Positions 381 to 24,080 are shown, counted from the first letter of the stretch. The stretch: 32,000 nt of DNA from Edaphobacter aggregans (GCF_003945235.1 NZ_RSDW01000001.1:5400001-5432000), one strand, 5' to 3'. The notes: generated from the letters alone by a model not told the origin. Made by a program: numbers and translations.

Positions 381-492
381 GAAGCCTTTTCATGCCCTCG
401 TCAAAAATATTTCTCCTTTTACACCAATTACTTAGCTGATGGCCTGCACTGCTCTCAGGGCAGTAGCAGTTGACGTCCACAGGTAGGCATAG

Positions 493-510
493 GCGAATAT
501 AAAGCGAATA
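493..510 (+). repeat. Tandem direct repeat GCGAATA-N4-GCGAATA (11-bp period) immediately upstream of the imuA start; possible operator
   Basis: GCGAATA occurs at 493-499 and 504-510, which reads as GAAT-N7-GAAT. The spacing is the same as the alphaproteobacterial direct-repeat LexA box GAAC-N7-GAAC. A TTGACG hexamer sits at 470-475. Confidence 0.15.
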
Positions 511-519
511 CTTACCTTT

Positions 520-1554
520 ATGCCCGCCACCTCCACAATCCGGACCCAGATCGAAGTAGCGCTTGCCCATAAGATTCCGTCCGCACTGACTCCGGCACCA
601 AAGATGATCCGGCCGATGGCAGAAACTGGCATTAAATCCCTGGACAATCTCCTGCAAGGCGGCTTACCCATTGGGGCCGTAAGCGAGTTGGTCGGGCCAG
701 AGTGTTCAGGTCGGACAGACATCGCTCTTTCGTTTGTGGCGCACCTGACTCAGGCATCCAAGGTCTGCGCCTGGATCGACGCTTCGAATAACTTTGACCC
801 AGTGTCCGCCGCTGCGGCGGGAGTAGATCTTGCGCGGCTCTTATGGGTCCGCTGCGGTGCAGTGCGGGAGACAGTGAAACCACCGACACGCAACTTCGTT
901 TTACCAGACAAGTACCTCGTTCCACGTCCCGCAAAGCAAGGATTGCACGGTGGAGGATTTGGTTCGCATCCTCGTGGCGAGGCAAAGGGGTTGTCCGGTG
1001 CCGTGAGTGGTCTGCTCAATCCACAATCCTTCGCGCCGCGCTGTGCGGAGCCGCAACTCAGGCTGAGAGAAGAAAATCCGAGCTTTATCGCAAGCGATGA
1101 ACCAGCAGTCGTCGCTTCTCGACGTTATTCTCCTACCTCTAAACCATGGGCACGCATTGAACAGGCATTGGGAACTGCAGACCTGCTTTTACAGGGCGGC
1201 GGCTTTAGTGCAGTCGTGCTGGATATGGCGAGTCTCGCCCCGGAGTTTGTCTCACGCATCCAGCTCTCGACCTGGTTTCGCTATCGAGCGGCAGCGGAGC
1301 GAACGCAATCCAGCGTTCTTCTCCTCACGCAGTATGCGTGTGCAAAGAGTAGCGCCGAATTACTTCTTCACCTCCAGCCTGCAGAAGCTATCGGCGATGA
1401 AATCACTGTATTTACAGGGATACAAGCTCATATTGAGGTAACGCGGCGACGTTTCGCGCCGAACACAAGCAATGTTGTTCCATTGCGTAAGCCACCGCAG
1501 AACGTCAGCGGAGCTACATGGCAGTGTCGAACCGCATGGTCAGGTGCGCGATGA
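520..1554 (+). CDS. imuA: ImuA-like RecA-fold protein, first gene of the imuA-imuB-dnaE2 mutagenesis cassette
   Basis: A 344-aa ORF with a RecA/SulA-like segment SLDNLLQGGLPIGAVSELVGPECSGRTDIALSF (degenerate Walker A) and a later GGGFSAVVLD strand. Its stop overlaps the imuB start (ATGA at 1551-1554). The position directly 5' of imuB/dnaE2 is the canonical cassette order. Confidence 0.7.
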   Translation: MPATSTIRTQIEVALAHKIPSALTPAPKMIRPMAETGIKSLDNLLQGGLPIGAVSELVGPECSGRTDIALSFVAHLTQASKVCAWIDASNNFDPVSAAAAGVDLARLLWVRCGAVRETVKPPTRNFVLPDKYLVPRPAKQGLHGGGFGSHPRGEAKGLSGAVSGLLNPQSFAPRCAEPQLRLREENPSFIASDEPAVVASRRYSPTSKPWARIEQALGTADLLLQGGGFSAVVLDMASLAPEFVSRIQLSTWFRYRAAAERTQSSVLLLTQYACAKSSAELLLHLQPAEAIGDEITVFTGIQAHIEVTRRRFAPNTSNVVPLRKPPQNVSGATWQCRTAWSGAR

Positions 1555-3065
1555 CAAAGCCAACGGAACTCTATGCGTGTCTATATACGAAAGAATTTCC
1601 GGCGCAATCGCTATTACGGCTTCGCCCAGAGCTGCACAGTAAGCCTTGTGTGGTCATGGAGGGGGAAGCACCATCGCAATCTGTCTGCTCTCTGAATACA
1701 AAGGCGCGGCTCGCGGGCTTGGCTCGCGGCATGACCCGAGTGGAAGTCGAGACGTTCTCGGAGCCGGTAGTTCTGTCGCGTTCGGTTCAAGCGGAGACGG
1801 TCACAAGGTCGATACTCCTCGAATGCGCAGGTGCGTTTTCACCGAGGATAGAAGATCACAGGTCAGATACAGCTCTGCTCTGCGGTATCGACATCGCCGG
1901 CACAAAGAGTTTGTTCGGGCCCCCTGAACTGCTGGCGCAAAGCCTGCTCCAGCGCGTTAGGTCGCTCGGCATATCTGCGCGGGTCATTGTCAGCGACAAC
2001 TTTCATACAGCAGTCTGTATCGCAAAAGGTCCGATGGCACGCTCTGCTATTCAGATCATTCCTTCACAGAGTAAGACCGAAGCCTTATCCGGCCTGCCAT
2101 TGTCGGTTCTCGATCTCACGGATACGCAGGCAGAAACGTTCGCTCTATGGGGTATTCGAACGTTGGGTAATCTGGCATCTCTTCCCGAGAAAGAGCTGAT
2201 CGCTCGTATGGGACAGGATGGCAAACGTCTCCGGCAACTGGCACGCGGTGAACATCCTCATCTTTTCCAGCCTGCACAGGCGCCATTCACCCTCGACGAG
2301 CAGATGGAACTGGATGCGCCTGTCGATCTGCTCGATTCATTGCTCTTTATCGTGAACATGATGGTGGATCAGCTTATTCTGCGAGCGAAGGCGCGTATCC
2401 TCGCGCTGGCTTCCTTGACGATCACGCTTACGCTGGATGGTGCCGGATCGCATACCAGAACCGTCCGGCCTGCATTGCCGACAACAGACAAGCAACTCTG
2501 GATCAAGCTGCTTCACCTCGATCTGCAGGCGCATCCACCCTCTACTTCCATCCTTGCTGTTGCGCTGCACGCAGAGCCAGGGAGCACCAGCAAGATCCAG
2601 CTTGGGCTGTTCTCCCCACAACTCCCGGAGGCAAGCCGGCTGGACGTGACGCTTGCTCGCATCCGGGCCATTGTCGGCGAAAACAATGTAGGCTGCGCTG
2701 TACTTCAGGATTCTCATGCGTTGGAAAGTTTCCGCATGGAGCCATTCAGCGTGCTTTCCGGCGAATCCGCTACAGCCGCTTCTTCGCAGCCGCGAGCCTC
2801 AATGCGTATTCTTCGGCCATCTGAAGCCGCTTCCGTCACCTTACAGAACGGGCGACCGTCGATATTCTTCTTTCGCGAACGCCGCTATGCCGTTGAACAC
2901 GGCTATGGGCCGTGGGTCGTTGGCGGTGATTGGTGGGCGCAGACGCTCTGGGGCTGCGAGCAATGGGATCTGGTAGCACGATCGCAGGATGGTTCTCTGC
3001 TTTGCTGCTGCATGATGCGTGATCTTCTCGAAAACAAATGGCAGATGGCGGCGCTCTATGATTGA
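1551..3065 (+). CDS. imuB: ImuB, Y-family-polymerase-like inactive accessory subunit
   Basis: I prefer the ATG at 1551 (MTKPTELYACLYTKEFPAQSLL...) over the listed 1518 because it forms an ATGA overlap with the imuA stop and gives about 504 aa. The fold flavour is Y-family, but the N-terminal motif lacks the D-x-D/FFASVE acidic residues (compare dinB in this window: HIDMDAFYASVEQ). Its stop overlaps the dnaE2 start. Confidence 0.85.
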   Translation: MTKPTELYACLYTKEFPAQSLLRLRPELHSKPCVVMEGEAPSQSVCSLNTKARLAGLARGMTRVEVETFSEPVVLSRSVQAETVTRSILLECAGAFSPRIEDHRSDTALLCGIDIAGTKSLFGPPELLAQSLLQRVRSLGISARVIVSDNFHTAVCIAKGPMARSAIQIIPSQSKTEALSGLPLSVLDLTDTQAETFALWGIRTLGNLASLPEKELIARMGQDGKRLRQLARGEHPHLFQPAQAPFTLDEQMELDAPVDLLDSLLFIVNMMVDQLILRAKARILALASLTITLTLDGAGSHTRTVRPALPTTDKQLWIKLLHLDLQAHPPSTSILAVALHAEPGSTSKIQLGLFSPQLPEASRLDVTLARIRAIVGENNVGCAVLQDSHALESFRMEPFSVLSGESATAASSQPRASMRILRPSEAASVTLQNGRPSIFFFRERRYAVEHGYGPWVVGGDWWAQTLWGCEQWDLVARSQDGSLLCCCMMRDLLENKWQMAALYD

Positions 3066-6000
3066 TCGCTACGTGGAACTCCATGCTGCCAGCGCATTCA
3101 GCTTCCTGGAGGGTGCGTCCGAACCCGAAAAGCTTGTAGAGCGCGCCTTCGAGCTGGGAATGCCCGCGATGGCTCTGCTGGACCGTAATGGGGTGTACGG
3201 CTCCGCACGATTCCATACCAGTGCAAAGCGCAATGAAGTACGCGCGCATATCGGAGCTGAAGTTGCCGTCTCCTCACTCGGCTCGCGACTCACGCCTCCG
3301 GCGTGGTTGCCGTATCAACACATTACCGAGCCTGCCCGTCTTCCACTGCTCTGTGAAACTCGCGAGGGCTATCAGAATCTCTGCCGGCTCATCACGCGAT
3401 TCAAAATGCGGGAGACGAAAAAACAAGAAGGAGCGGCCATCTTTGATGATCTGGAGAGACATGCTTCTGGGCTGGTATGTCTGACAGGCGGGGACGAAGG
3501 CCCACTAGCAGCAGCTCTAATGCGCGGTGGTGAGCGAGCCGGAAGCGAGACGGTCGAGCGGCTTGTGCGCATCTTCGGACAAAACAACGTCTATGTCGAA
3601 TTGCAGCGTCACTGTGAACGCGAAGAAGAGTGGCGCAATCAAGCTGCTATTCGCATTGCCCGGTCACTTCAACTGCCGGTGCTGGCGACGAATGGCGTTC
3701 GCTATGCCATCCGGTATGACAAAGAGATTCTGGATGTCTTTACGGCTATTCGGTATCACACAGAACTCGATAGAGCCGGACGTCTTCTGTCTCTCAATAA
3801 CCGCCGTCATCTCCGGACGGCGAAAGAAATGAATGCTCTCTTTCGTGACGTGCCCAATGCCACGGAGAACACGGTAGAACTCTCGTCGCGTCTGAAGTTT
3901 GAGTTGGATGATCTTGGATACGAGTTTCCCAGCTATCCGGTGCCCGACGGCGAAACAATGGATAGCTTCCTGCGAAAGCGCGTTACTGAAGGCGTGCAGC
4001 GGCGGTATGGTCCCAAGAACAATCGAGACCTCTACAAACGCGCGGAGAAGCAGGTTGAGCGCGAGCTAGCATTGATCGAGAAGTTAGGTTTTGCGGGATA
4101 TTTCCTCATCGTGTGGGATGTTGTGCAGTTCTGCAAACGCAACGGCATTCTGATTCAGGGGCGGGGAAGTGCGGCTAATTCGGCGGTCTGCTATGCCCTC
4201 GAAATCACCATTGTTGATCCGGTTGGTATGGACTTGCTCTTCGAGAGGTTTCTGAGTGAGAGCAGGAATGAGTGGCCGGACATCGATCTCGATCTGCCTT
4301 CAGAGGATAAGCGTGAGCAGGCCATCCAGTATGTCTACAGACGCTACGGCGAACTCGGCGCTGCAATGACTGCGAACGTAATCACCTATCGCGCGAAGTC
4401 CGCGACGAGGGAAGTCGGAAAGGTCATGGGTCTTGATCCGGATTCTCTGGATAAGATGTCCGGGGGTGTAGGCAATTGGGAGTGGCGCGGACCAAACGAC
4501 ACAATGGCGCACTCCTACAAGAGTGCTGGATTCGATCTAAGTAACTCCCGGATTGCCAAGACCCTGGAAGTAGCCATGCGTATTCAGGGACTGCCTCGTC
4601 ACCTTGGACAACATAGCGGTGGCATGGTGATCTGTCAGGGCCAGCTCGATCAGGTTGTGCCGTTGGAACGAGCGTCCATGCCGGGTCGCACTGTCATCCA
4701 ATGGGACAAAGAGGACTGTGCAGACATGCACATCATCAAGGTCGATCTGCTTGGCCTGGGCATGATGGCTGTTCTCGCAGGTTGCCTCGATTTGGTTCCT
4801 GAATTCTATGGTGACAGAATCGATCTCGCGCAACTGCCGGAAGATGACGATGTCTATCGGACCATTCAACGTGCCGACACCATCGGCATGTTTCAAATCG
4901 AAAGCCGTGCGCAGATGGCTTCGTTGCCGAAGCATCGGCCCCGGAGCCGATATTGCATCACAAAGCAAGTCGCTCTGATCCGGCCAGGACCGATTCACGG
5001 GGATATGACCCATCCATATTTAGAACGGCGAATGGGAAGGCAGCCTGTAACGTACCCGCATCCTTCCCTCAAACCAGTTCTGGAACGCACCTTGGGTGTG
5101 CCGCTCTTCCAAGAGCAACTGCTCAAGATGGCGATGATTGCAGGCAATTTCAGTGGTGCCGATGCGGACGAGTTGCGCCGCGCGGTAGGGATGAAACGTT
5201 CCTGGGAACGAATGAAGAATCTCGAAGGTAAACTCCGAGCCGGGATGACGGAGAACGGTATTGATCCCAAATCGCAGGATCAGATTGTCAAGAACATTAG
5301 CTCCTTCGCCCTCTATGGCTTCCCGGAATCTCATGCCGCATCCTTTGGTGAGCTTGCCTACGATTCGGCTTACATCAAAGTGAAGTACCCGGAAGCCTTC
5401 CTCTGTGCGATCTTGAATAATCAGCCGATGGGATTCTACTCTGCCGCCACGCTTGTGAAGGACGCCCAACGCCACGGCGTTCATGTCAGATCCATCGACG
5501 TACAGACCTCGAACTGGCAATGCACTATTGAGCGAGGAGAGCACGAAAAGCTCTCCGTTCGTATCGGTCTCGGCTATGTGAAAAATCTGACCAAACGATC
5601 AGCCGAAGCGCTGGTAGCAGTTCGCGAAGCTGATGGTCCCTTCCGCTCTGCCGAGGATCTTACTCAGCGCGTTCCGTCTCTCACTCGACATGAACTGGCC
5701 CGACTAGCTGGGGTAGGAGCACTGAATAACCTCGAGGGAATCGAACATCGTCGCGATGCAATCTGGCAGGTAGAGCGAGCAGGCAAATTGGAGGGTCCGC
5801 TGTTTCGACAGAACAGTGATGTGCTGCGCGATGATGACGCGAGTTTGCCCCTCCAGCAGATGAGCACAGAAGAGAGATTAGTCGCCGATTACGCCGGTAC
5901 CAGTCTTACCATCGGCAAGCATCCGATGGCGTACCGCCGGGAAGCGCTTCGTAAGCAGAATGTACTTTCCTCCAACGATCTACAAAATCGTCGCCATGGA

Positions 6001-6276
6001 GATTTTGTACTCATAGCTGGTTGTGTCGCAGCCCGGCAACGTCCAGGAACTGCCAACGGAATTACCTTCATGTCGCTTGAGGATGAAGAGGGGCTCGCCA
6101 ACCTCATCATCATGGTCGATGTTTACGAAAGAAATCGATCAACAGTCATCCGCAGCAAGTTCGTTCTCGCGGGCGGCGTCCTACAGGTTCACGACGACGT
6201 CATCCATGTAAAAGCGGCATGGCTGAGGCCGCTTTCCGATCAGGCGCTGGAGGTGCAATCACATGACTTCCACTAA
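3058..6276 (+). CDS. dnaE2: Error-prone DNA polymerase III alpha-type subunit DnaE2 (ImuC)
   Basis: PHP N-terminus YVELHAASAFSFLEGAS, then GFAGYFLIVWDVV, RGSAANSAVCYALEIT, WPDIDLDLPS, HSGGMVI, FQIESRAQM, LIRPGP, FPESHAASF and a C-terminal OB-like region. I chose the ATG at 3058 (MIDRYVELH) because it overlaps the imuB stop as ATGATTGA; this gives 1072 aa. Confidence 0.95.
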   Translation: MIDRYVELHAASAFSFLEGASEPEKLVERAFELGMPAMALLDRNGVYGSARFHTSAKRNEVRAHIGAEVAVSSLGSRLTPPAWLPYQHITEPARLPLLCETREGYQNLCRLITRFKMRETKKQEGAAIFDDLERHASGLVCLTGGDEGPLAAALMRGGERAGSETVERLVRIFGQNNVYVELQRHCEREEEWRNQAAIRIARSLQLPVLATNGVRYAIRYDKEILDVFTAIRYHTELDRAGRLLSLNNRRHLRTAKEMNALFRDVPNATENTVELSSRLKFELDDLGYEFPSYPVPDGETMDSFLRKRVTEGVQRRYGPKNNRDLYKRAEKQVERELALIEKLGFAGYFLIVWDVVQFCKRNGILIQGRGSAANSAVCYALEITIVDPVGMDLLFERFLSESRNEWPDIDLDLPSEDKREQAIQYVYRRYGELGAAMTANVITYRAKSATREVGKVMGLDPDSLDKMSGGVGNWEWRGPNDTMAHSYKSAGFDLSNSRIAKTLEVAMRIQGLPRHLGQHSGGMVICQGQLDQVVPLERASMPGRTVIQWDKEDCADMHIIKVDLLGLGMMAVLAGCLDLVPEFYGDRIDLAQLPEDDDVYRTIQRADTIGMFQIESRAQMASLPKHRPRSRYCITKQVALIRPGPIHGDMTHPYLERRMGRQPVTYPHPSLKPVLERTLGVPLFQEQLLKMAMIAGNFSGADADELRRAVGMKRSWERMKNLEGKLRAGMTENGIDPKSQDQIVKNISSFALYGFPESHAASFGELAYDSAYIKVKYPEAFLCAILNNQPMGFYSAATLVKDAQRHGVHVRSIDVQTSNWQCTIERGEHEKLSVRIGLGYVKNLTKRSAEALVAVREADGPFRSAEDLTQRVPSLTRHELARLAGVGALNNLEGIEHRRDAIWQVERAGKLEGPLFRQNSDVLRDDDASLPLQQMSTEERLVADYAGTSLTIGKHPMAYRREALRKQNVLSSNDLQNRRHGDFVLIAGCVAARQRPGTANGITFMSLEDEEGLANLIIMVDVYERNRSTVIRSKFVLAGGVLQVHDDVIHVKAAWLRPLSDQALEVQSHDFH

Positions 6277-6556
6277 TCCTGCCGGACACGTCGGCGGGTA
6301 TCGGCGTGAAGTGGACTTTCAGAAATTAGGTCCAGCTTTGATAATCGCGTCTAGTCTGGTGCTCGCCATCCGAACGGCCCGCTGGCCTCCGACGCACAGC
6401 GACGGACTTGCAAATATGGAATGGGAAAAGGAAGTTGAGCACAGCGTTCGCATCGCGAAGATTGTTCTTTCGCATGTAATCGCACGTTGTCCAGAGATGT
6501 TTCAGATGAAGGACGTGCCCTGGTATGTCGCGACGGACGACGAAATACCAAAGTAG
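6263..6556 (+). CDS. Hypothetical small membrane protein (97 aa), translationally coupled to the dnaE2 3' end
   Basis: The ATG at 6263 is preceded by GGAGG (6250-6254) and overlaps the dnaE2 stop (6274-6276) by 14 nt. It has one hydrophobic helix (GPALIIASSLVLAI). I recognise no family. Confidence 0.4.
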   Translation: MTSTNPAGHVGGYRREVDFQKLGPALIIASSLVLAIRTARWPPTHSDGLANMEWEKEVEHSVRIAKIVLSHVIARCPEMFQMKDVPWYVATDDEIPK

Positions 6557-6701
6557 CATTGACTGCAACTTTTATGATGGCAACGGTTAACCTGACCTTG
6601 ATTAATGAGCTCTTGATGCTGACGATGGATAAGGCCGCACTGGGGTCTTCGCATATACTTCTTTCACGAGTCAGACGACAGAACAGTGAGCCAAATCAAA
6701 C

Positions 6702-9700
6702 GTGATCTCCCGCTATGTACTTTGGAACACCGTTACCCCTTCTACCCCACCGGAACCTGTATCTGTTGCGCTAAAGCAGGCTTTCCAACTTCCAATTGAC
6801 AATCTTGAATCAATCGTTCCGACCTCACTGGCTACGGCAACTCGAATTGCGATTCGAGAATTCCTCGTAACAACCGATGCAGGCCGCGAGTTGGCCGTTT
6901 ATAAGGGAACGCAGCCCCTTTGGCTGGCCCCGTGCGGACAGACATCGATCTCCGATATGGACCTGTCCGTGCGTTCCTTCAATTGTCTGGTTGGCGCGTC
7001 AGTCGCGACTTTGGACGATCTGCTTGCATGGACTCCGAACAAACTCTTGAGCTTGGAACACTTCGGAAGAAAATGTCTCAATGAGATTACCGGGCTTCTA
7101 AGCGACCTTGGATATATTGCAGCTGACGAAGATAGCCCATTCTTCAAAGGTCATCGAACGGGCAACCCATCCGATGACGGCTGCCCGTTCGCCTGCCTGT
7201 TGGCGATTCGGGAGGTGCTTCCCGAAGGGCCACTGCGGACAAAGCTCGAGATGTGCGATTGGACCACGATTGGAGATATCGCGCTTCACCCAATCTCCGA
7301 TGCGTCAATATTCGCAGACCTTACTCAGGAAGAGCAGAATACACTCCAGAACATCTTTCAAAACCTTTCTCTAACCTTGCCTGTTCGGGAATCTGAATGG
7401 GTAACGACTCATGTTTCCGAACTGCGCCGTGTTTTCTCGTCTGAGCTGAGCGCACTTGGGCAGGCTCTCAATGTTGACGACAAACAGCCTACAAGCGACT
7501 CGATCGTTTTCGTTGGAAGCGCCAGCTCGTTGACTGAAGAACTTGATCGACTCATTCCGCCCAAGTACAAGCCGCAAAAACGGTCTATCATCGCTGCGCT
7601 CTTCGGGCTTGATGGCGCTGATCCTCTTACGCTCGAAGAGGTTGCTAAGCGACAGGATCCGCCGATGACGCGGGAGCGAGTCCGCCAGATCGGATCCCCA
7701 TTTCTCAATCGCATCACTTCAGAGGGCAGAAATCTAATCTGGCTTCATAAAGCCCTTGAGACACTGACAGAGGAGATTCCTTGTACACAAGTTCATGCAG
7801 AGATACTTCTCATCGAACGGGGAATCCTCACCTCTCGCCTGTCTCTGACTTCTATTCTCAAACTCTTAAATCGGGCAGGGGTCGAGCATCAGCTAATTCT
7901 GGAATTCGGGCTTCTGCTTTCGAAACAGACCTTGTCTGTCATGAAAGCTGCTGTCTCCAGTGCTCGCAAGAGTTCTTCCCACTGGGGCGTGGCCGACTGG
8001 GAAGAAGTACGGGCTCCGTTGGGCCAATATGGGCATATCATCCGCCCCATTCTTCCCTGGGTTACTTGGCTAGGAGATTCCGAGAGATACTTTGTCTTTC
8101 CAGATGGAGAGAACAGTCTCGCAAACCGGCTGGCTCGGATGTTGCATGTGGCACCCCGGCTTCCGCTTTCGATTGCGTATGAGGCGATCTTTCGGGACAA
8201 TCGGGTGGATTGCTCTCGCCTCCCTAGGGAACATTTCGCTTCGTTCTGCGGACTCTGGCCTTGGTGCAAGCTCGACGGCGACGAGATCGTCTCTATTGGC
8301 ACGCTTCCTCCTGTCGAAGCCTCTGGCGACGATCTTCTGGTCATTCTGATCCGCGAATTCGGCAGACCCGCCACGAGACAGGAGATTTTGCAACGAGCAC
8401 GCATTGAAGGCATTGGCGACGTGACCGTCAACCAGGCCTTGAGTTACAGTAATGTCCTGATGGGGGCTAGTGGTCGGTATTGGGTGGTTGGAGACCCACC
8501 CTTCGTGGAAGAATCCCGCGATTCACAGGCAAAGACCTCCGAGCCTTCTCCTTTAGTGGAGATTACTTCGGGCGATCTTGCTGCTGAGATCATCTCCCAA
8601 GACGGCTCGACAGGACATTCACCCAGTGGAATCTCTAAGCTTGACCCTGCATCCGAGCAGTTCGTAGAGCGCTTGACCCTGGAAGTGCAGCGGCGGGTCG
8701 TCAAGAGACAGCTTGCAACGCCATGGTCAGTAGCAGAACTCGCCCTGGAGGATGCGGAACGATCAGTATTGTTTGAATGGGGTAGCCTCGCGCAATGGGA
8801 TTACCGCAGGGACAATGTTCGATTCAATGACATCGCGAATGAAAGGATTCGCCGGCGCGCCGCGCTCGGGCTTGCGTTCATGGTATTCGCTGCGGAAGCC
8901 GTCCGAAAGCTCGGCGGATCGGGGGTTGTATGGCCCGCGATAAATAAGGCTCTCGGACCGCAGCAACGTCAATTGTTCCTCGCGCAGGAGAGTTCCCCGA
9001 AAACAATGTTGCGAGAAGGAGTGGAGGAGGCTTGCAGGGTCTTCGGGATCAGACACGATTTTGGCGAAGCCGGGCATCAGGTTTGGGTGCGGACGATTGG
9101 CGTTCAGTATGCCATTCCGCTCTCTCAGCTTCCATCCTTACCTCAAATGTTGACCGAATCGTTTGAATTTAATCCGATATCGGTCCAATCACTTCTCAGT
9201 CCGTCGGACAAAATGTACTCGCCTTCGTTCACCGAGGCGTGGAACACTATGAGGCGTCTGCGGCACGGCGACCTTAGCGCGGGCACTGCGGAACAACGGC
9301 TCAAGAAAAATTGCTGGACGATGCATTTCCCTATCGCGGAGCTCCTTGATTGGTGTCTTGCCTCCGCGCCGGCTCGTGCAACCACGAATCAAGGTCTCAC
9401 CCGAGAATCGGAAGGTCTGGCTTATTCCTATTTTGATCAGCCCTCGCTACGATGGGTTGGGGACAACCCGTTTCTTGAATATGCCTTGCACCAGCGGCCG
9501 CCCGCGTGGGTCGAATTAGGCCCGTTGATGTTCATTTCCACTGAACCAGTTAAAAAGGAACAGGTGCTTATCGGCGAGGATGGCTGGCGATTTGCATACG
9601 CTCCATTGTCGATTTCGTTGAGCCACCATCCGTCGACCTATTTCTCCTTCGATCTTCGGTATCGAGGCTCCTCCCAGCTCGCGGAACCAATCGTGCAATC

Positions 9701-11504: not shown

Positions 11505-11505
11505 A

Positions 11506-16620: not shown

Positions 16621-16648
16621 GCACGGGTCCGCACGAACGCGCATGCCG

Positions 16649-16664
16649 CCAGAATCGATTCTGG
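16649..16664. promoter_or_regulatory. Perfect 16-bp palindrome CCAGAATCGATTCTGG between the giant helicase gene and the RecD-like gene
   Basis: Read directly at 16649-16664, 29 nt after the helicase stop. No T-tract follows, so it is not a canonical intrinsic terminator. It could be a protein-binding site or a short hairpin. Confidence 0.25.
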
Positions 16665-16769
16665 ATTGGAGCTAAATCGCTGATGCACTCATCTGGGAGG
16701 CAACACCGACCGACTTCACATTTGTGATCATGTTGATCTGTAAGGTTGTCGTTTACAGTAATCCCAGCG

Positions 16770-18275
16770 ATGAAAGATCCAGACTCGAATGGCAGCCGCC
16801 TGACCAATCTCGCGAGACGCTGGCGCAAGCGACTCACCCAGGCGCAACCGGAAGCAGATTCTCAAGAGACGTTCTTCTCGCCACCACCACGGGCCGAGGG
16901 GACTAGCGTCGTGGTAAGAGCAATCGTACCGATGCCAGCTGTACCTACCCCGATAGAAGAATCCTCAACCGACCCTGAGCTTACGACGGACCAGGCAGAG
17001 GCGCTCCGTAAGATTGAAGCCGCCTACGAGCCAGGCGAGTTCTACCTACTTACGGGGCACGCTGGCTCAGGCAAGACGTATCTCATGCAGCGGCTAACGA
17101 AGAACATGCTGGCAAAGAAGCGCCGGATCGTTCTCACTGCACCCACGCACAAGGCGGTCGCGGTCCTCGCGCGCAAACTGGCCGAGGCCAACATCAAGGA
17201 CGTACCATGCCGCACGATCCATAGCATCCTCAGCCTAACGCCGAAACCTCGGACGGATCGGCTCGTTTTCGAAAGAGAGCGCGACGCAGAACCCGTCACG
17301 GCCGATGTCGTAGTTGTCGACGAATGCAGTATGGTTTCGGAGGATTTATACCGCCATATAAAGCGGCACCTGCCCAATGCCTTCGTCCTATTTCTTGGGG
17401 ATCCCGCTCAGCTGCCTCCAGTAGGAGAAGTAGAAAGCCAGACGTTCGCAACAAAGAATCGGTCGCACCTCACGACGATTGTGCGGCAAGCGGCTGGGAA
17501 CCCGATCCTGGCTGCCGCAGGCATCATCCGCGCCAGTCAGGGAGGACCGGCGGATATGTCGTGGTGTGCGGCGGCTGCGCTTGAAACCAAGCAGGGCATT
17601 TTCCTGCCAGCCGATGCAGCGCACCGGTGGATGAAGAAGGCCTTCACGTCGCCGGAGTTCGACGCCGACCCGGATAGCTTCCGCTACCTCGCATGGACAA
17701 ATTCGCGTGTTCATCAGGTGAACGAGTTAATCCGGGCTTGGCGGTACGGCGCAAATATTCCGACGCCGTTCATGCCTGGCGAAAGTGCGCTGTTCCGCGC
17801 TCCCGTTGTAATCGACGAGTCCATCATCTTCGCCAACAATCAGGAAGCCAGAGTTATAGCGATTGAACGATCGACGTTCACTCACGAGATTCAGGAGGCT
17901 GATGGCGTTCCTCAATGGACAGCCTCGATCCCATCCTGGAAGATCACACTTCGCGATGTCGAAGGCATCGACAAAGCGGTTCATATGCACGCTGATGAGC
18001 GCGAGTTTCAGAGGGTAATTGAGCGGATAAAGGATGAAGCGGCTGAGTCACGTCTACGATGGAAGCACCTTCATGGGTTCCAGCAGAGTCTGGCACAGCT
18101 GCAATCTGTCTATTGTCTGACGGTTCATCGGAGTCAGGGCTCAACATTCCAGACTGCGTTTCTCGACCTACCTGACATACGCCGGCGCGAAAAAACCAAC
18201 CTATTGGAAGCGCAACAAATGCTATATGTGGCTGTGACCCGGCCCTCGCAGCGCCTGATAGTGGTTGGGGAGTGA
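16770..18275 (+). CDS. SF1B RecD/Dda/Pif1-like DNA helicase (AAA_30 plus UvrD_C-type)
   Basis: Motifs: Walker A TGHAGSGKTY, TAPTHKAV, Walker B VVVDECSMV, LFLGDPAQLPPV, TIVRQ, LTVHRSQGSTF, LYVAVTRPSQRLIVVG. I prefer the ATG at 16770 (MKDPDSNG...) to the listed TTG at 16746. The N-terminal 90 aa or so are low-complexity. Confidence 0.85.
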   Translation: MKDPDSNGSRLTNLARRWRKRLTQAQPEADSQETFFSPPPRAEGTSVVVRAIVPMPAVPTPIEESSTDPELTTDQAEALRKIEAAYEPGEFYLLTGHAGSGKTYLMQRLTKNMLAKKRRIVLTAPTHKAVAVLARKLAEANIKDVPCRTIHSILSLTPKPRTDRLVFERERDAEPVTADVVVVDECSMVSEDLYRHIKRHLPNAFVLFLGDPAQLPPVGEVESQTFATKNRSHLTTIVRQAAGNPILAAAGIIRASQGGPADMSWCAAAALETKQGIFLPADAAHRWMKKAFTSPEFDADPDSFRYLAWTNSRVHQVNELIRAWRYGANIPTPFMPGESALFRAPVVIDESIIFANNQEARVIAIERSTFTHEIQEADGVPQWTASIPSWKITLRDVEGIDKAVHMHADEREFQRVIERIKDEAAESRLRWKHLHGFQQSLAQLQSVYCLTVHRSQGSTFQTAFLDLPDIRRREKTNLLEAQQMLYVAVTRPSQRLIVVGE

Positions 18276-18307
18276 CACCTCTCCAATACTTCCACCCACC
18301 TGCTTTC

Positions 18308-19813
18308 CTACATGTAATACCTGAATGATGACAGCGGAGTGGTCGAATCATCCTCTCCATACTCAGCCATGATGCCCCCAATCTTCCTTGAAAAGGCGAG
18401 CGTCACCGGTTGTCCTCCTGACATACTGGCGGTATTCCAGTTCATTCGCGCCAATCCGAGAATGTCTTTCGCTACCTGTTCGAGGTCAATTATCCGGTCG
18501 CTTCGTAACTCCACGGGCGCAGGTATATGTGGGCCAGGATAGGTGCCGATTGACGGCATATATCCCGTTGTAAAGAGGAAGGATTTCGATCCGTTCACCA
18601 GACAAAGAGTCCCGCGGTTTGGGGGGTATGAACCAAATCGCAGCAGCCGAAATTGCGTTGGCATGATGTTTATGAGCTCCACAACAGGAACCGAAGTTAG
18701 TGCATGACGAAAGCCTTCACTCTCGGCTTCACTAAAGGCCGACGTCTTGTGAAAAACCATTCGTACAGGATCACCACCCGTTCGATCACGATATTCCTCC
18801 AAGACGTTTGTAGCCAAAGCAGCCGCTTGGATGTCAGTCAAATGTACGTTACGCCCTTGGTCTTCGCTCCAGTCTACGTTTCCTCCACGCAGTGCGAACC
18901 CTTCCCCTTTGCTCGAAAAGGCCTGCGCGATGCTCGATTGAACGAGATGTCGTTGAGTTGTACGTAAGTGATGAAAACTAACTCCTACGAAACATGTCTC
19001 TGGGCCATCGAGATTGAGACGCCACGGGATGCCGCCAGCCTTGTAATAAAGGGCTACAGTGCTGTTCCATGCTCTGATATTAGGCGCCTGGTTAGATTCC
19101 TGGTCCTCTACCATGTGTCGCGTAGCGATCTGAACTGGCATTCGAAACCGCATTGCGCGAGCTTTGAGAGCCCTTCTGAAGTCGCGCTGAAGAAGATCCT
19201 CAGGCTGCTCCTCAACAGGCTGGCTATCAAAAGAGAGGGATAGTTGGGGATCACTCTGCTTCTTCTTGAGAGCAGCTACCGCTGCCTTGTCTTCCTTGGT
19301 CAGAGTCTCATTCAGCGACCAGCAACGAGCGATCAACTCGTCTGGCAGACAACACAAAACTACGTCCGGCTTCTTTGTCTCCAGAGAAGAAAGTTGTCGG
19401 ACCCCTTCTGCATACAGCTCCAAAACCGCTTCGAATCGGGTCTTCGGATCACTCAGGTTGAGACAGTTCGCAAGTTCGCCCGATTCACCACCCAGACTTT
19501 TGACGAATCTCGTATTCTGTATCAGCTTGGCGCGGAAGATGTCTTGGAATCCCGGGAAGGCTGGGTATTGAGTCATGTCAGATGAGGCTTCGGGTAGGAT
19601 TTGTTGGCAACGTTCAAGCCATCTCTGAGTGGCATCAATCATCATGTCCGGGCCTACTAGTCCAACTGTGATGGTTTCATTTCGCCCGGCACCGAAGCGC
19701 AGGTCGAACGGGCCGGCCTCCCGAAGGCCCTGTCGCATATCAGAAAATTCGCCGGGGCCGCCAAATTCAAGAAGCGGCTCCGGTAACTGACGAAGATCAA
19801 TTCGAATCGGCAT
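18308..19813 (-). CDS. Short prokaryotic Argonaute (MID plus PIWI only), predicted catalytically inactive
   Basis: End-to-end pattern match to short pAgos as I recall them (e.g. the SPARTA Ago): N-terminus LPEPLLEFGG...GLREAGPFDL, ALKARAMRFRMPVQIA (MID), ALYYKAGGIPWRL, and C-terminus GQPVTLAFSRKIGGIMAEY...SSFRYYM. The PIWI catalytic positions read GVSFHH and FHKTS instead of G.DV.H and HRDG. The ATG at 19813 (MPIRIDL) overlaps the upstream gene's stop by 17 nt; the listed 19834 is a TTG. Confidence 0.9.
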   Translation of the reverse strand: MPIRIDLRQLPEPLLEFGGPGEFSDMRQGLREAGPFDLRFGAGRNETITVGLVGPDMMIDATQRWLERCQQILPEASSDMTQYPAFPGFQDIFRAKLIQNTRFVKSLGGESGELANCLNLSDPKTRFEAVLELYAEGVRQLSSLETKKPDVVLCCLPDELIARCWSLNETLTKEDKAAVAALKKKQSDPQLSLSFDSQPVEEQPEDLLQRDFRRALKARAMRFRMPVQIATRHMVEDQESNQAPNIRAWNSTVALYYKAGGIPWRLNLDGPETCFVGVSFHHLRTTQRHLVQSSIAQAFSSKGEGFALRGGNVDWSEDQGRNVHLTDIQAAALATNVLEEYRDRTGGDPVRMVFHKTSAFSEAESEGFRHALTSVPVVELINIMPTQFRLLRFGSYPPNRGTLCLVNGSKSFLFTTGYMPSIGTYPGPHIPAPVELRSDRIIDLEQVAKDILGLARMNWNTASMSGGQPVTLAFSRKIGGIMAEYGEDDSTTPLSSFRYYM

Positions 19814-22574
19814 TATCTTCCTCTTCCGCTTCAATTCGATAGGTCTCTGCGAGTTCGGCTATTTCATTGACGAGTTCTTCGTCGATGTCGACTTCGCTCA
19901 CATCCGTATCCTGTTCTTCGATTAGGCTGGAATCCGTTAGAACTACAGTCGGGAACTTCGCAGCAAGCGTTATCCGAGAATCAGACTGTCCTAACGACTT
20001 CGAAATTGCCCGAGTTTCGCCTGGTAGAAGATCAGAAACTCGAGGCTCTGGAGCAAAATTAAACATTCCTGTCTCTCCGCGCGCTAGAACCCAGAGCCAA
20101 AATGAGATGTCATTGAACACCGCATTGTTGTAATCCCGCGAAGCCCGTTGGGTTGAAAGTTTGTTGACTCTTTCAGACGCAAGCAATCCCTTCAATCCAT
20201 TAAAGGTGAACACATAGCCAGGCTCGATGATCAGAACCCACACGTCGCCGTAATATTCAAACCTATAGCTGAAGGACTGATGCTCCCAGTAGAGCACTTT
20301 GTCTGTTCGATTTGAGGTTCTGGCCTTAACAACTGTTCGAGTCGCCTTTCGCAATCGAGCTTGATAAGTAATTACACGAGGGCCGTCATCTTCTTTCGGG
20401 AAGTAGGCTCGCTTGCGTTTCTTATCCACTAATAATCCGGCCCGATAAAGATGCCCTTCGAGGCTCATGTTCAGAAGCTGAACCAATTGACGCGAACCAT
20501 CTAAATGCCCAGAAAGCTCATTTAGTGATAAGGTTTCTGTGTCTCCGCCGTCGAGCAATCGAGACAACGGGTTTCTTCGATCTTCGAGATCGTAGAAGCT
20601 GAAGAACCTCCCATCTGAAAGGAGAAAAGGTGGGATCCATTGCTCGCCCGCCTCCTGCCAGACCTCGGAAAGACTGCGAACAGAAGTCCCGGCATGATAG
20701 ACCTGACTCGGCAACTTCGTAACTTCCAGTACGTTGGCAGCATAGCGACTTGTAGTCGCTACGAGCGGAGAAGCTGTGCCTGTTGACTCGTCTACTGCCT
20801 CGGGTCTGGAGAAGATTTCGATCTCAAATGCTGTGTTATCGTTGTTTGGACCAAATCGAACATCTCCACCATTGTTTCTGACGTCTCGTAGAACATCGGA
20901 AAGTCCAGAACCTCTCTTATCCATCTCGCCACTGCCGTAGAACAGATCAGCGAGCACGGGGTTGCGGTAGCCCTTGATCCCGCGGCGGCCACGACGAATT
21001 TCAGTTTCAATTGATCCGGTCTCAAACCTATGTCGAACTTCCTCGACCAAGCCTCCTGGATTGGAGATCTTGATACTGGACGACGTAACGACGATCTCAA
21101 TATTTCCGGCCATGCGATAGTCGCGATGTACGAGTGCATTGACGATAACCTCCTTCAATGCGAGAGGCGGGTAAGGGACTACGCTTTCGGATACTTCCCC
21201 TTTGAGCCTGAAGGACCGATTAAAGCTGCTTAGGAATTGGGTGATCTGCTCGAACTGTTCCCACAAGTGGCCAGAGATGGTTCCCTCAAAACTCTCCTTA
21301 TCCGACAGGTGGGATTTGTCGTCGGCTGACTGACGAATGCGCTTCAACCATTCAGGACTACCAATGGCCTCAATGCGGGTTATAGCGGAAGTGATATGAC
21401 TGTCGGGCTTTCTTCCAAACAACAAAACACCGGCATTGGTCAGCTGCTCCACGGTCGGGCTATTTGCGCGGACAGCCAAGTTCAAGTTGAATAGCTGCTC
21501 CGTTACCCATGCCCGCTCAACCTGAGGCGGAACGCTCAGTTTGAGCGCCTCTGCGTATTGAAGAATACGGGTATGAAGGGTAGACCAGTCCAGTTCGCTC
21601 AGTTCTACCGACGAAACGTCCATGTCGAACGTCGGCGATTGATGGTGTGCACTTGCAGGTCCTGGAGATGAAAATGACAGGTCGGCATCCAGATTGAGTG
21701 CCCACAGGTCGCGCGCAAATAACTCGTCAAATCCGTCGATCTCGATCGTGCTGAAGTTGTCTCCGATTGTCTTTGCAAGCTCATCCACCAACGGAGGAAG
21801 TTCCTGGCTTGACTCGCCAGTGCGCCGGCACCAGAAAATCCCGTGACGATAGAAGTGAGCGCTCTCCGCATTATCGATGAGCAAATGACGCATTACGGAC
21901 GGTTCGGCACCGCGGTAGCCGACCACGATAAGCGGTCGGTCCCGCAATAATGGAAGAAGCATCTCGATCAACCTTGGATCGAGTTTTTGAACCTCGTCAA
22001 TGATGTTCTTGTCTGTGTAGTGATCCACTGAGCCGTGGAGATATACCAGCTGCGGATATTGAGGATCGGTTGTGAATTTCGTGTAATCCGAAGCCGTCTG
22101 GATTGCATTGATGTAGTGAGGACGGCCTTTCTGAGCTCGTGTATCGAGCAGCAGGGAGTCAAAGTTCGTCGTGAGCACCGTGTGAACAAGCTGGAGATGT
22201 AAGAACTCTGCAAGTTTGTCATATCCCGGACTGGGTTCAATCCCGGGCGAGAGAAGCTTGCGAAAGAACTCTGCTCGCGCGTGGCGCGGTTGCAAAAGGT
22301 GTTGAACAACTGAGGGGTAGTTGTCTACGAGCGCCGCGTTCTGATCGAACCACGATTGCTGCTCCACCCAGGGCAGCCAGTCACTTCTCTGGAGTCTCGG
22401 ATCTTCTTCCGATCTTCCGTGCTGATTAGCATAAGCCCAACGAGCGGCCCTTTCGACCACTCCTGCGGCCGCAGGAATGCCAGAACGAACGGAAGCACCT
22501 GCTCCGAGGAGTAGCACTGGCTTGGGTCGCGATTTAAGTAAGGAATAAATTCTACCGATGCTTCCGACCTGCAT
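19797..22574 (-). CDS. SIR2 / AlbA_2-HATPase_c_4 ('RecG-like', Schlafen-related) / APAZ three-module partner of the short pAgo (925 aa)
   Basis: SIR2_2-type motifs: LLLGAGASVRSGIP, TTNFDSLL, YLHGSV, IVVGYRGAEPSV. Middle module: GVLLFGRKP..., PPLALKEVIVNALVHRDYRMAGNIEIVVTSSSIKISNPGGL, YRNPVLADLFYGSGEMDKRGSGLSDV. The C-terminal 310 aa or so parallel the APAZ of TIR-APAZ as I recall it (LEVTKLPSQVYHA, PPFLLSDGRFFSFYDL, WVLIIEPGYVFTFNG, acidic tail). The gene overlaps the pAgo gene. Confidence 0.85.
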   Translation of the reverse strand: MQVGSIGRIYSLLKSRPKPVLLLGAGASVRSGIPAAAGVVERAARWAYANQHGRSEEDPRLQRSDWLPWVEQQSWFDQNAALVDNYPSVVQHLLQPRHARAEFFRKLLSPGIEPSPGYDKLAEFLHLQLVHTVLTTNFDSLLLDTRAQKGRPHYINAIQTASDYTKFTTDPQYPQLVYLHGSVDHYTDKNIIDEVQKLDPRLIEMLLPLLRDRPLIVVGYRGAEPSVMRHLLIDNAESAHFYRHGIFWCRRTGESSQELPPLVDELAKTIGDNFSTIEIDGFDELFARDLWALNLDADLSFSSPGPASAHHQSPTFDMDVSSVELSELDWSTLHTRILQYAEALKLSVPPQVERAWVTEQLFNLNLAVRANSPTVEQLTNAGVLLFGRKPDSHITSAITRIEAIGSPEWLKRIRQSADDKSHLSDKESFEGTISGHLWEQFEQITQFLSSFNRSFRLKGEVSESVVPYPPLALKEVIVNALVHRDYRMAGNIEIVVTSSSIKISNPGGLVEEVRHRFETGSIETEIRRGRRGIKGYRNPVLADLFYGSGEMDKRGSGLSDVLRDVRNNGGDVRFGPNNDNTAFEIEIFSRPEAVDESTGTASPLVATTSRYAANVLEVTKLPSQVYHAGTSVRSLSEVWQEAGEQWIPPFLLSDGRFFSFYDLEDRRNPLSRLLDGGDTETLSLNELSGHLDGSRQLVQLLNMSLEGHLYRAGLLVDKKRKRAYFPKEDDGPRVITYQARLRKATRTVVKARTSNRTDKVLYWEHQSFSYRFEYYGDVWVLIIEPGYVFTFNGLKGLLASERVNKLSTQRASRDYNNAVFNDISFWLWVLARGETGMFNFAPEPRVSDLLPGETRAISKSLGQSDSRITLAAKFPTVVLTDSSLIEEQDTDVSEVDIDEELVNEIAELAETYRIEAEEEDNADSN

Positions 22575-22677
22575 TGCTTGCTCCAGGGGAATGCCCAGCT
22601 CTAAATCCTGATGTCTACAAGATCCAGTGTATCGGCCCCAAGTGCAAAGTTGCTTAGAATGTGAAGTTTGTCCCGGA

Positions 22678-22707
22678 TTTATAAGTGGGAAACGTCTTTC
22701 TCGTCAA
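22678..22707 (-). promoter_or_regulatory. Candidate sigma-70-type promoter for the SIR2-APAZ/pAgo operon
   Basis: The minus strand reads TTGACG (complement of 22702-22707), an 18-nt spacer, then TATAAA (complement of 22678-22683). This is about 100 nt upstream of the ATG at 22574. The match is by consensus only. Confidence 0.25.
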
Positions 22708-22760
22708 TCACTAGTGGTTTGTCATCAACTCGGAAGTCGGAACGGTTCTCCGCGTTGTCC

Positions 22761-23873
22761 TTAGCCTTCGAACAGGGGTGATTGTGATCCTTCTTGGTCT
22801 CTAAAATTACTCAAACCGACCCCGACTAAACGAAAGCGCCGTGCTGCCCCGACATCGACACGCTCTCGCAATGAAAGTGCGATCTCAGCCAGTTCCTCGC
22901 ACGATAGGGGAGGAACGATAGGTGTGTGGCTACGGGTAAGGATGTTGAATTCGCTTGTCTTCAGTTTGAGAACTACGGTCCGCGCCACGCGCGACTCCTT
23001 GCGGGACGCAGACCAGACCTTTTCTGCGAGTCGCCGGATGAGGTCTTCCATCTCCGATAACGGAATGTCCCGCTCGAAAGTATCTTCTGCGGAGATCGAC
23101 TTAGTTGGCCTGTCGGGAATGACTCTGTTGTGATCGATGCCGCGGGCGAGTTCATAGAGGCGCAATCCATAGCGGCCAAACCGTGTTTCGAGGGCGGCCA
23201 GATCGAAGGCATGCAGGTCGCCTACTGTCTGAATGCCGATCTGCTTTAGCCGAGTTTCGGTTACTCTTCCGACTCCGGGAATGCGTCCGACAGGGAGTGG
23301 GGGAAGGAACGTATCCAGGTCCGCCGGCTGAATGACGAAAAGACCATCGGGCTTCCGCCAGTCGGAGGCGATCTTTGCGAGGAATTTATTCGGCGCGACG
23401 CCCGCTGACGCGGTCAACTGAAGCTCTTCGCGGATTTGTTGGCGGATGGTTTTGGCAACTCTGGTTGCCGTAGGTAAGTGCGTTTTATTCTTTGTGACGT
23501 CTAGATACGCCTCGTCGAGCGAAAGAGGTTCGACGAGGTCGGTGTGGCGCTGAAAAATATCTCGTACTGCGCGTGACACAGCCTTGTAACGCGTGAAATC
23601 GGGAGGAAGGAAGATCGCTTCGGGACACAAGCGTTCGGCAGTAACCGCCGGCATTGCGGAACGTACACCGAAGCGTCTCGCCTCATAAGACGCGGCGCAT
23701 ACAACAGACCGTTTTCCGCGCCACGCCACGACAACTGGTCTGCCGCGCAGCGTCGGGTCATCTCGCTGTTCAACCGAGGCGTAGAACGCGTCCATATCGA
23801 TATGAACGATCTTGCGAAACGTCACCTCGCCAGAGCTATCGGCTTTGGGACCAGGAGATCTGTCATCGTTCAT
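22761..23873 (-). CDS. dinB: DNA polymerase IV (Y-family translesion polymerase)
   Basis: Motifs: IVHIDMDAFYASVEQRDDPTLRGRPVVV, SLDEAYLDVT, ASAGVAPNKFLAKIASD, and an HhH segment IPGVGRVTETRL. I prefer the ATG at 23873 (MNDDRSPG..., 370 aa) to the listed GTG at 23957, whose extra 28 aa are hydrophobic and atypical. Confidence 0.9.
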   Translation of the reverse strand: MNDDRSPGPKADSSGEVTFRKIVHIDMDAFYASVEQRDDPTLRGRPVVVAWRGKRSVVCAASYEARRFGVRSAMPAVTAERLCPEAIFLPPDFTRYKAVSRAVRDIFQRHTDLVEPLSLDEAYLDVTKNKTHLPTATRVAKTIRQQIREELQLTASAGVAPNKFLAKIASDWRKPDGLFVIQPADLDTFLPPLPVGRIPGVGRVTETRLKQIGIQTVGDLHAFDLAALETRFGRYGLRLYELARGIDHNRVIPDRPTKSISAEDTFERDIPLSEMEDLIRRLAEKVWSASRKESRVARTVVLKLKTSEFNILTRSHTPIVPPLSCEELAEIALSLRERVDVGAARRFRLVGVGLSNFRDQEGSQSPLFEG

Positions 23874-24030
23874 GCGCTTGATTGTAAGCGAAGAGGCGGC
23901 GAAAACTGCAACAGGATCGGACACATAAAATGCACTGGGTAGCAAAAACTTGATCACCCATGTGCGTGCGCCCGTCTCCCGTGCAAGGTGGCCTCGTTTG
24001 CCAAGAGCTGTACCCTGCCTTGGAAAGGTG

Positions 24031-24060
24031 AAAACGGGCTGATCTCACACAGATCAGCCC
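24031..24060 (-). terminator. Rho-independent terminator-like hairpin downstream of the SRAP gene and upstream of dinB
   Basis: Perfect 10-bp stem GGGCTGATCT (24036-24045), loop cacac, AGATCAGCCC (24051-24060). On the minus strand a GTTTT run (complement of 24031-24035) follows the stem. On the plus strand CTTTGG follows it. Confidence 0.5.
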
Positions 24061-24080
24061 TTTGGCCCCGCTCCTAAAAG

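Follow-up and report, generated by a model that had tools for sequence, protein, structure and literature searches.

A 32,000-nucleotide stretch of the 6.15-Mb genome of Edaphobacter aggregans (called the window here, always at its full length) carries two translesion synthesis (TLS) loci, imuA-imuB-dnaE2 on the plus strand and dinB on the minus strand, which point toward each other across some 16 kb of defense-type genes. Our preferred reading, to which we assign a probability of roughly 0.7, is that a small mosaic defense island was built up here, in the convergent gap between two damage-tolerance transcription units. The resident units would be imuA-imuB-dnaE2-orf97 (plus strand) and dinB (minus strand), with the gene of a YedK-type abasic-site peptidase (SRAP) as a separate unit 5' of dinB. 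The gap would have been filled by three or more units that originated independently: a Druantia-like gene pair, a lone gene for a RecD-like helicase, and a pair made up of a SIR2-X-APAZ gene and the gene of a short prokaryotic Argonaute (pAgo). We class the region as a small defense island of a familiar kind, in a place for which the literature searched gave no precedent, and the TLS genes beside it are typical of their respective families.

The proteins of the window were exact matches to consecutive GenBank records (RSL18959 to RSL18976), and their families were assigned with Pfam, NCBIfam (at the curated bit score cutoffs), and PADLOC models. On the plus strand, imuA-imuB-dnaE2 and orf97 are followed, after a spacer of 145 nt (6557-6701), by the genes for a giant protein, a DruE-family helicase, and the RecD-like helicase. 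On the minus strand, the order is SRAP, dinB, a spacer of 186 nt (22575-22760), SIR2-X-APAZ, and short pAgo. The two arms converge at 18275/18308, where a gap of 32 nt separates them. The initial annotation of this DNA had described the same layout, with two defense modules lying back-to-back, each downstream of and co-oriented with an error-prone polymerase locus, and all of its genes and spacers were recovered in place. The plus-strand genes that it had grouped into one cluster, however, are present but do not form a single unit: giant and DruE go together, and the RecD-like gene stands by itself.

Borders and relatives of the two defense cassettes

The borders of the first cassette were read from a metagenome contig, L161, that was 95.7% identical at the nucleotide level exactly over window positions 6632 to 16580, without any similarity beyond them, and that encodes a giant protein 95% identical to the one studied here. 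In this contig, a gene for an XRE-type regulator precedes the giant/DruE pair, and PDC-M54A, rather than a RecD-like gene, follows it. (PDC-M54A, a candidate defense protein of ~1,750 amino acids [aa] encoded at L161 positions 10689 to 15619 and matched by PADLOC with an E value of 0, overlaps the end of DruE.) Copies of the pair at 58 to 59% identity were found to sit in islands, together with CHAT and a second DruE in L162 and with integrase, ApeA-HEPN, and Prim-Pol in L176. Finally, a distant pair in L177 (10001-24839; 38% and 57% identity) lies directly 5' of a divergent SRAP gene and imuA-imuB-dnaE2, the latter carrying the same operator (GCGAACATAAGGCGAA) as in the window (see below); giant/DruE and a mutasome are here found side by side for a second, independent time, in a different orientation. 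No promoter was visibly common to the distant giant/DruE copies, and no plasmid-borne copies of the giant gene were found.

The pair resembles Druantia type III (DruH-DruE), in that a very large partner is encoded 5' of a DruE helicase of ~1,700 aa with a DUF1998/MZB domain, and this pairing is kept at four other loci. The helicase, whose start at 11506 was confirmed by the exact GenBank match, indeed hit PADLOC DruE3 (1.8e-202) and carries the Pfam domains DEAD, Helicase_C, and a C-terminal MZB/DUF1998. Its partner, however, does not look like DruH. DruH is a YjiT-family protein (PMC13192584), whereas Pfam and NCBIfam scans yielded no YjiT-family match for the giant protein, and PADLOC yielded no DruH match even at an E value of ≤5, the only PADLOC match being MzaA (0.0025). 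Apart from the domain resembling the C-terminal domain of the RNA polymerase alpha subunit (alpha-CTD; Table 1), the giant protein contains a weak sigma-70 region 4-like helix-turn-helix at about residues 276 to 345. Its homologues formed 36 clusters, always with PF03118, which is doubled in some members, and some of them matched part of PglW and part of MzaA. Since the giant protein has no DruH match, we refer to the pair as Druantia-like and not as type III.

The second cassette was delimited by L167 to L169, which were 85 to 86% identical to the window at the nucleotide level from position 22695 to position 18301, with weaker similarity up to about 22737. TTGAC and TATAAA elements 5' of SIR2-X-APAZ are common to these copies, with different spacing. 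Close copies of the SIR2-X-APAZ/pAgo pair, with 79 to 91% amino acid identity, have neighbors elsewhere such as a phage-type integrase, Prok_Ub/E2 with ArdC, or PIN-MazE, and never dinB. In its organization, with a SIR2-APAZ gene 5' of and overlapping short pAgo, and in its full-length PADLOC class I matches, the pair resembles the SPARSA type of short pAgo system. It departs from that type in that the partner has an extra HATPase_c_4 domain in the middle (the "kinase" of PADLOC naming), which brings it to 925 aa. Accordingly, SIR2-X-APAZ matched Aga_SIR2-PNTD1-PNTD2 over residues 7 to 919 (E value of 0) as well as Aga_SIR2-Kinase-PNTD1-PNTD2 (9.2e-287), and Pfam recognized SIR2_2 in addition to the middle domain. 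With more than 700 homologues across phyla and a PADLOC model of its own, the long form is already known.

The RecD-like gene is in neither cassette, because the homology blocks stop at 16580 and 18301, and from its surroundings it appears to be a separate unit. The protein matched PDC-S68, PDC-M16A, and typeIV_RecD in PADLOC, and its cluster has 52 members, some from Silvibacterium metagenome-assembled genomes (here and below, cluster sizes are numbers of members at ≥90% identity in the protein collection). The palindrome CCAGAATCGATTCTGG, located between the DruE stop and the RecD-like start, could be the binding site of a regulator. One might, of course, see the giant protein, DruE, the RecD-like protein, and perhaps the pAgo pair as one composite three-helicase system that moved as a single cooperative block. 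The genes lie close together, separated by 125 nt and 32 nt, Druantia III has been reported to depend on host RecD (PMC13192584), and, to judge from GenBank accession numbers, giant/DruE and a RecD-like gene at ≥90% identity are about 10 genes apart in a Silvibacterium metagenome-assembled genome. Nevertheless, homology with the other copies ends at the two positions just given, a RecD-like gene is missing beside DruE at all four other giant/DruE loci, the pAgo-cassette loci examined are all without giant and DruE, and unrelated genomes have so far not shown a block of these five genes joined in the same way. We therefore consider a composite system very unlikely.

Probable insertion into a convergent gap

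Taken together, the two cassettes and the gene between them make up a foreign block of 16.1 kb (~6632-22737), with 75 nt remaining between orf97 and the block and ~24 nt between the block and dinB. The initial annotation had offered two readings, namely, damage-induced read-through from the polymerase loci into the defense genes and insertion of about 16 kb of defense DNA into a once contiguous damage-tolerance neighborhood. Of these, we favor insertion. That the defense DNA was inserted is well supported by the ends of cassette homology and by the foreign contexts of the copies, whereas support for the former contiguity of the flanks is indirect.

That indirect support came from a comparison of gene order that took 80 dnaE2 loci in species-representative genomes and another 80 loci, of dinB, in metagenomes, and in which the nearest relatives sampled had 76% identical DnaE2 and 84% identical DinB, respectively. 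The outcome was divided: dinB was not downstream of dnaE2 at any of the 80 dnaE2 loci, but dinB and dnaE2 are convergent in one acidobacterial lineage, represented by the closely related contigs L090, L097, and L108. There, a ligase-dinB unit faces dnaE2 across 17 nt in L090 (7678-8670), 3 kb in L097 (1428-4375), and 1.1 kb in L108 (2210-3294). The L097 spacer comprises three open reading frames (ORFs), and neither this spacer nor that of L108 received a PADLOC or Pfam assignment. L090 keeps only a C-terminal fragment of dnaE2. Furthermore, SRAP, dinB, or an ATP-dependent ligase gene lies beside imuA in L013, L020, L029, L031, L032, L033, and L177. Cluster sizes ranged from 26 to 111 for the flank genes, from 7 to 9 for the pAgo-cassette genes, and from 5 to 21 for the two genes of cassette 1, which hints at presence/absence variation of the cassettes. 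A 938-kb contig encodes ImuB, SRAP, and orf89 at ≥90% identity and no cassette protein at that level.

How the arrangement might work can be outlined as follows. Each TLS unit would start at a promoter overlapped by an operator of the form GCGAA-N6-GCGAA, and both defense pairs would normally be transcribed from promoters of their own, as suggested by the fact that they carry their own upstream regions and occur elsewhere without TLS genes. For co-orientation of both cassettes with their flanks, our estimate of the prior is ~1 in 4; in a convergent gap, this orientation would be the one likely to last, as a cassette turned around would meet incoming transcription head-on. With no terminator in sight, the cassettes may receive some transcription from the SOS promoters, as a by-product rather than as the reason for the arrangement. 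The cassettes themselves would probably have come from related Acidobacteria, by recombination rather than by site-specific integration. As for the flanks, we estimate that two TLS loci would fall within 17 kb of each other in a 6.15-Mb genome with a chance of roughly 0.5%, which makes coincidence unlikely.

Several observations weigh against island build-up between formerly adjacent TLS units. No empty site was present among the 80 dnaE2 and 80 dinB loci, so that an insertion between neighboring dnaE2 and dinB is putative; within 10 kb downstream of dnaE2, dinB, SRAP, and these defense genes were absent in 80 of 80 cases, and none of the 80 dinB loci combined SRAP upstream with pAgo downstream, the sole SRAP match being weak and divergent (L106). 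More generally, downstream neighbors were not conserved in either set of 80 loci. With 10 members, the dinB cluster is as small as those of the pAgo-cassette genes (7 to 9), and dinB might itself be accessory or have arrived with the island. The operator at its promoter was not enriched across orthologues, with 7 of 76 upstream regions and 10 of 76 control regions containing a match at ≤1 mismatch. Nor did the block carry the marks of an integration event: no target site duplication or shared repeat was seen at the four junctions, the window contains no tRNA gene, its ORFs encode no recombinase or integrase domain, and an Rfam search for border signatures returned nothing. G+C content also fails to mark the block (0.545 inside versus 0.550 and 0.534 in the flanks), and the cassette promoters proposed here are guesses from consensus sequences.

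The block nonetheless resembles defense islands at variable loci, with unrelated systems side by side, with copies elsewhere beside integrases, toxin-antitoxin genes, and defense genes, and with presence or absence varying among close relatives. What sets it apart is its small size, with three units in 16 kb, and the lack of an integrase, a tRNA gene, and flanking repeats. In the literature searched, an island placed exactly between two SOS-type TLS units was not found described.

Table 1. Features of the window in order of position
Feature	Position	Strand	Description
imuA-promoter operator	490-512	+	TAGGCGAATATAAAGCGAATACT; core at 493-508; ends 8 nt 5' of imuA ATG
imuA	520-1554	+	RecA-like mutasome accessory protein, 344 aa, RSL18959; Pfam RecA 2.2e-14; exact GenBank match
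imuB	1518-3065	+	Y-family polymerase homologue, 515 aa, RSL18960 ("protein ImuB"); Pfam IMS 1.5e-13
dnaE2 (imuC)	3058-6276 (alternative start 3019)	+	Error-prone C-family polymerase, 1,072 aa, RSL18961; exact match
orf97	6263-6556	+	Conserved ORF of 97 aa, EDE15_4572; 14-nt overlap with dnaE2 stop
Resident spacer	6557-6631		75 nt, 41% G+C; outside L161 homology; fold z = +0.63
Cassette 1	6632-16580	+	Druantia-like two-gene module, including its own 70-nt 5' region
Giant protein	6702-11504	+	1,600 aa; RNA polymerase alpha-CTD-like helix-hairpin-helix at residues 80-134 (PF03118, 1.6e-15)
DruE-family (YprA-like) DEAD/DEAH helicase	11506-16620 (alternative start 11452)	+	1,704 aa, RSL18964
Palindrome	16649-16664		CCAGAATCGATTCTGG; perfect, 16 bp, between DruE stop and RecD-like start; no T-tract after it
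RecD-like SF1 helicase	16770-18275 (alternative start 16746)	+	501 aa, RSL18965; Pfam AAA_30, AAA_19, UvrD_C_2
Cassette 2	18301-22737	-	SIR2-X-APAZ and short pAgo, including its own ~160-nt 5' region
Short pAgo	18308-19813 (alternative start 19834)	-	501 aa, RSL18966; PADLOC pAgo_I 2.1e-146; exact match to "Piwi domain-containing protein"
SIR2-X-APAZ	19797-22574	-	925 aa, RSL18967; overlaps pAgo start (19797-19813)
Promoter-like TTGACG-17-TTATAA	22679-22707	-	Consensus match by eye; missed by promoter scan
dinB	22761-23873	-	DNA polymerase IV; 370 aa (RefSeq) or 398 aa from GTG at 23957 (GenBank); exact matches for both starts
dinB promoter	23881-23903	-	Operator TTCGCCGCCTCTTCGC (23903-23888) abuts -10 box TACAAT (23886-23881)
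Intrinsic terminator 3' of SRAP	24031-24060	-	10-bp G+C stem GGGCUGAUCU-GUGUG-AGAUCAGCCC, then GUUUU
SRAP/YedK-type abasic-site peptidase	24291-24920	-	209 aa, RSL18969; PF02586 8.8e-46 over residues 1-193; exact match

The flanking units and their SOS-type operator

Alignment of the regions upstream of imuA revealed the motif TAGGCGAAnAnAAnGCGAA, strictly placed a few bases 5' of the imuA start in 54 of 80 Acidobacteriota loci, with the direct repeat GCGAA-N6-GCGAA as its core. On a position weight matrix (PWM), the sites had a median score of 34.1, and the imuA-promoter operator of the window scored 34.3. The window contains two exact cores where 0.24 would be expected, one at the imuA promoter and one at the dinB promoter. 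The dinB ATG, at 23873, lies 8 nt past the TACAAT box, and the dinB leader is predicted to be very short or absent. The same in-register layout of operator and -10 box recurs at dinB of L148 (exactly) and of L085 and L105 (one mismatch each). The dinB site, with a PWM score of 10.0, is less secure than that of imuA, since dinB orthologues in general show no enrichment. Outside the two TLS promoters, the best PWM score in the window was -0.9, and neither an exact operator nor a PWM match above -1 was present 5' of giant (6702), the RecD-like gene (16770), or SIR2-X-APAZ (22574).

Other LexA boxes were considered as well. The gammaproteobacterial box CTGT-N8-ACAG was rejected, as its 11 matches at ≤1 mismatch were about the 10 expected and none was at a promoter, and exact GAAC-N7-GAAC or GTTC-N7-GTTC sequences were present in the window inside genes only. 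A GTTC-N7-GTTC LexA box is reportedly used in Acidobacterium capsulatum and in Alphaproteobacteria. The operator described here repeats every 11 bp, as that box does, and has its TTC/GAA core; the fourth position of the operator varies. We infer from the likeness that GCGAA-N6-GCGAA is bound by a LexA-type SOS repressor.

The operon behind the imuA operator follows the plan of the LexA-regulated imuA-imuB-dnaE2 cassette (PMC6511836), with a RecA-like ImuA, a Y-family ImuB, and DnaE2 in that order behind an operator at the promoter. The three genes overlap as one operon, and their order is kept across related loci. ImuA was assigned by position and fold family, since its NCBIfam ImuA score (43.8 bits) was below the cutoff of 150. 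The imuB start is placed at 1518 in GenBank and at 1551 in metagenome gene calls. DnaE2 scored 1,219.9 bits against NF004225 ("error-prone DNA polymerase"; cutoff, 939) and contains the Pfam domains PHP, DNA_pol3_alpha, finger, and HHH_6. Just upstream, a DUF1016/YhcG-type (PDDEXK-like) gene ends 5' of imuA (window positions 1 to 250, plus strand); the same family is represented in the pAgo island of L163.

Unlike the known cassette, the locus has a fourth overlapping gene, orf97, located 3' of dnaE2 here and in two relatives, L002 and L013, where copies that are 80% and 64% identical, respectively, occupy the same dnaE2-overlapping position. Judging from the overlap, orf97 is probably translationally coupled to dnaE2. 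Its family comprises at least 445 protein clusters, nearly all of exactly 97 aa and 72 to 94% identical, with all named members from Acidobacteriaceae and without a Pfam or PADLOC match. A paralogue in the same genome, EDE15_4253, is 78% identical, and most dnaE2 loci lack the gene. Homology of orf97 to a family of ~70-aa proteins encoded 3' of dnaE2 in L030, L031, and L033 was entertained and dismissed as unsupported, as BLASTP found nothing and hhalign gave an E value of 0.088.

On the other flank, DinB matched the equivalog model NF002677 over its full length (455.1 bits; cutoff, 256) and contains the Pfam domains IMS, IMS_C, and IMS_HHH. The SRAP protein begins with MCGRY and thus has the N-terminal Cys2 expected of SRAP/YedK. 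Because an intrinsic terminator (24031-24060) parts SRAP and dinB, they are likely separate transcription units. Just 5' of this terminator, at 24080 to 24102 (minus strand), lies another direct repeat, GCGAC-N6-GCGAC (TTTGCGACAAAGATGCGACAAAC), with the same 11-bp period and a different half-site.

Read-through and recurrence

In line with the initial annotation, which had seen no convincing intrinsic terminator after dnaE2-orf97 or after dinB, a pattern scan found none in the 145-nt or the 186-nt spacer, and the spacers folded no better than shuffled sequences (z = +0.63, +0.25, and -1.26); both methods address intrinsic rather than Rho-dependent terminators. A recognizable terminator is also missing at four of the four close dinB orthologues examined, which have ordinary downstream genes, and its lack here thus carries little weight. 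After the orf97 stop, a good hairpin is present in L002 only, of the two orf97 orthologues examined.

These spacers are the starting point for an explanation in which the layout has a function: de-repression of imuA and dinB would lead to read-through that raises the levels of the Druantia-like and pAgo proteins upon DNA damage, for example, during phage replication or prophage induction, and selection would keep the layout for that reason. Both upstream units do carry an operator, both spacers are without a terminator hairpin or T-tract terminator, and both modules are co-oriented with the TLS unit upstream. Similar neighborhoods exist, too, with a distant giant/DruE pair adjoining SRAP-imuABC in L177 and a close pAgo cassette adjoining an operator-controlled unit in L170 to L172. 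In those loci, however, the orientation is wrong, as the SRAP unit of L177 points into the 3' end of DruE and the small-gene unit of L170 to L172 converges on pAgo, so that any read-through would be antisense. The nearest copies of the two cassettes (95.7% and 85 to 86% nucleotide identity) have no TLS gene upstream, and the cassettes of L162, L167, and L176 have their upstream gene on the other strand and would therefore require promoters of their own. Moreover, the cassettes keep 5' sequences of their own (70 nt and ~160 nt) and carry no operator, and the missing terminators, being shared by dinB orthologues with ordinary downstream genes, are uninformative. From inspection of the DNA, we found no evidence that the damage response would control the defense genes; we do not favor read-through as a selected feature, give it a low prior, and regard it as improbable, if less so than the composite system.

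A less demanding explanation is that SOS/TLS loci attract islands: in Acidobacteriaceae, imuABC and other operator-controlled genes would lie in flexible regions or be mobile cargo themselves, the entire region of ~24 kb would be accessory along with its TLS genes, and defense cassettes would be found beside such loci more often than expected by chance, without any regulatory meaning. In Granulicella mallensis X5P3 (L013, 161-18434), imuABC-orf97 is flanked by defense genes on both sides, with TIR-APAZ and a short pAgo, a RES-domain gene, an Mrr nuclease gene, and then SRAP and an ATP-dependent ligase gene upstream and with an OLD-like TOPRIM gene and a GajA/GajB-like (Gabija-like) pair downstream. 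In Acidobacterium sp. S8 (L002), orf97 is followed by Gabija-like, NACHT, and RecD-like genes. The adjacencies in L177 and L170 are of the same sort, the DUF1016/YhcG gene precedes imuA in the window, and the length of the dinB-dnaE2 spacer varies among L090, L097, and L108. A survey of 103 immediate neighboring ORFs of imuABC in the 29 closest genomes showed that the neighbors differ in almost all of these genomes and belong to 161 Pfam families. On the other hand, no PADLOC family matched more than 2 of the 103 neighbors, the top matches being generic kinases, and five other loci have, by Pfam, ordinary downstream genes. The supporting counts, 2 of 29 loci and 2 of 7 independent cassette contexts, are small and post hoc. 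Attraction of islands to SOS/TLS loci is a tentative alternative to ordinary build-up in the convergent gap, and a somewhat doubtful one. The stronger idea that the imuABC flank is a general hotspot for defense genes was rejected, given that no defense family occurred among more than 2 of the 103 neighbors in the 29 genomes; the recurrent families included those of two-component signaling, each found up to 7 times, SRAP, found 3 times, and ligase, found 2 times.

The L170 locus deserves a closer look. At 14383 to 14860 (minus strand), and also in L171 and L172, an operator, TTCGCCTTCTATTCGC, is immediately followed by a unit of two ORFs that points toward the 3' end of the pAgo cassette; this cassette is 79 to 83% identical to that of the window. 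The second ORF (71 aa) belongs to the ~70-aa family whose genes start 3 to 13 nt after the dnaE2 stop in L030, L031, and L033 (phmmer E values, 7.5e-6 to 9e-4). Together with both arms of the window, L177, L013 (with SPARTA-like and Gabija-like systems), and L002, these loci raise the question of whether antiphage cassettes of Acidobacteriaceae are placed nonrandomly beside operator-controlled genes, be they imuABC, dinB, SRAP, or small ORFs. Possible causes would be preferred landing or recombination sites or else damage-induced spill-over that modulates defense, with sense induction in the window and antisense damping in L170 and L177. We consider such placement unlikely, less so than read-through kept by selection; an association beyond chance is possible, in the form of a weak enrichment noticed after the fact.

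A regulatory arrangement would link antiphage immunity to the DNA damage response in a phylum of soil bacteria that has received little study. The evidence points instead to ordinary build-up of an island, and the main value of these findings is descriptive. The exact borders of two mobile defense cassettes have been mapped, the partner of DruE in one of them represents an unclassified family of giant proteins rather than DruH, and a conserved SOS-type operator has now been defined for acidobacterial imuABC.

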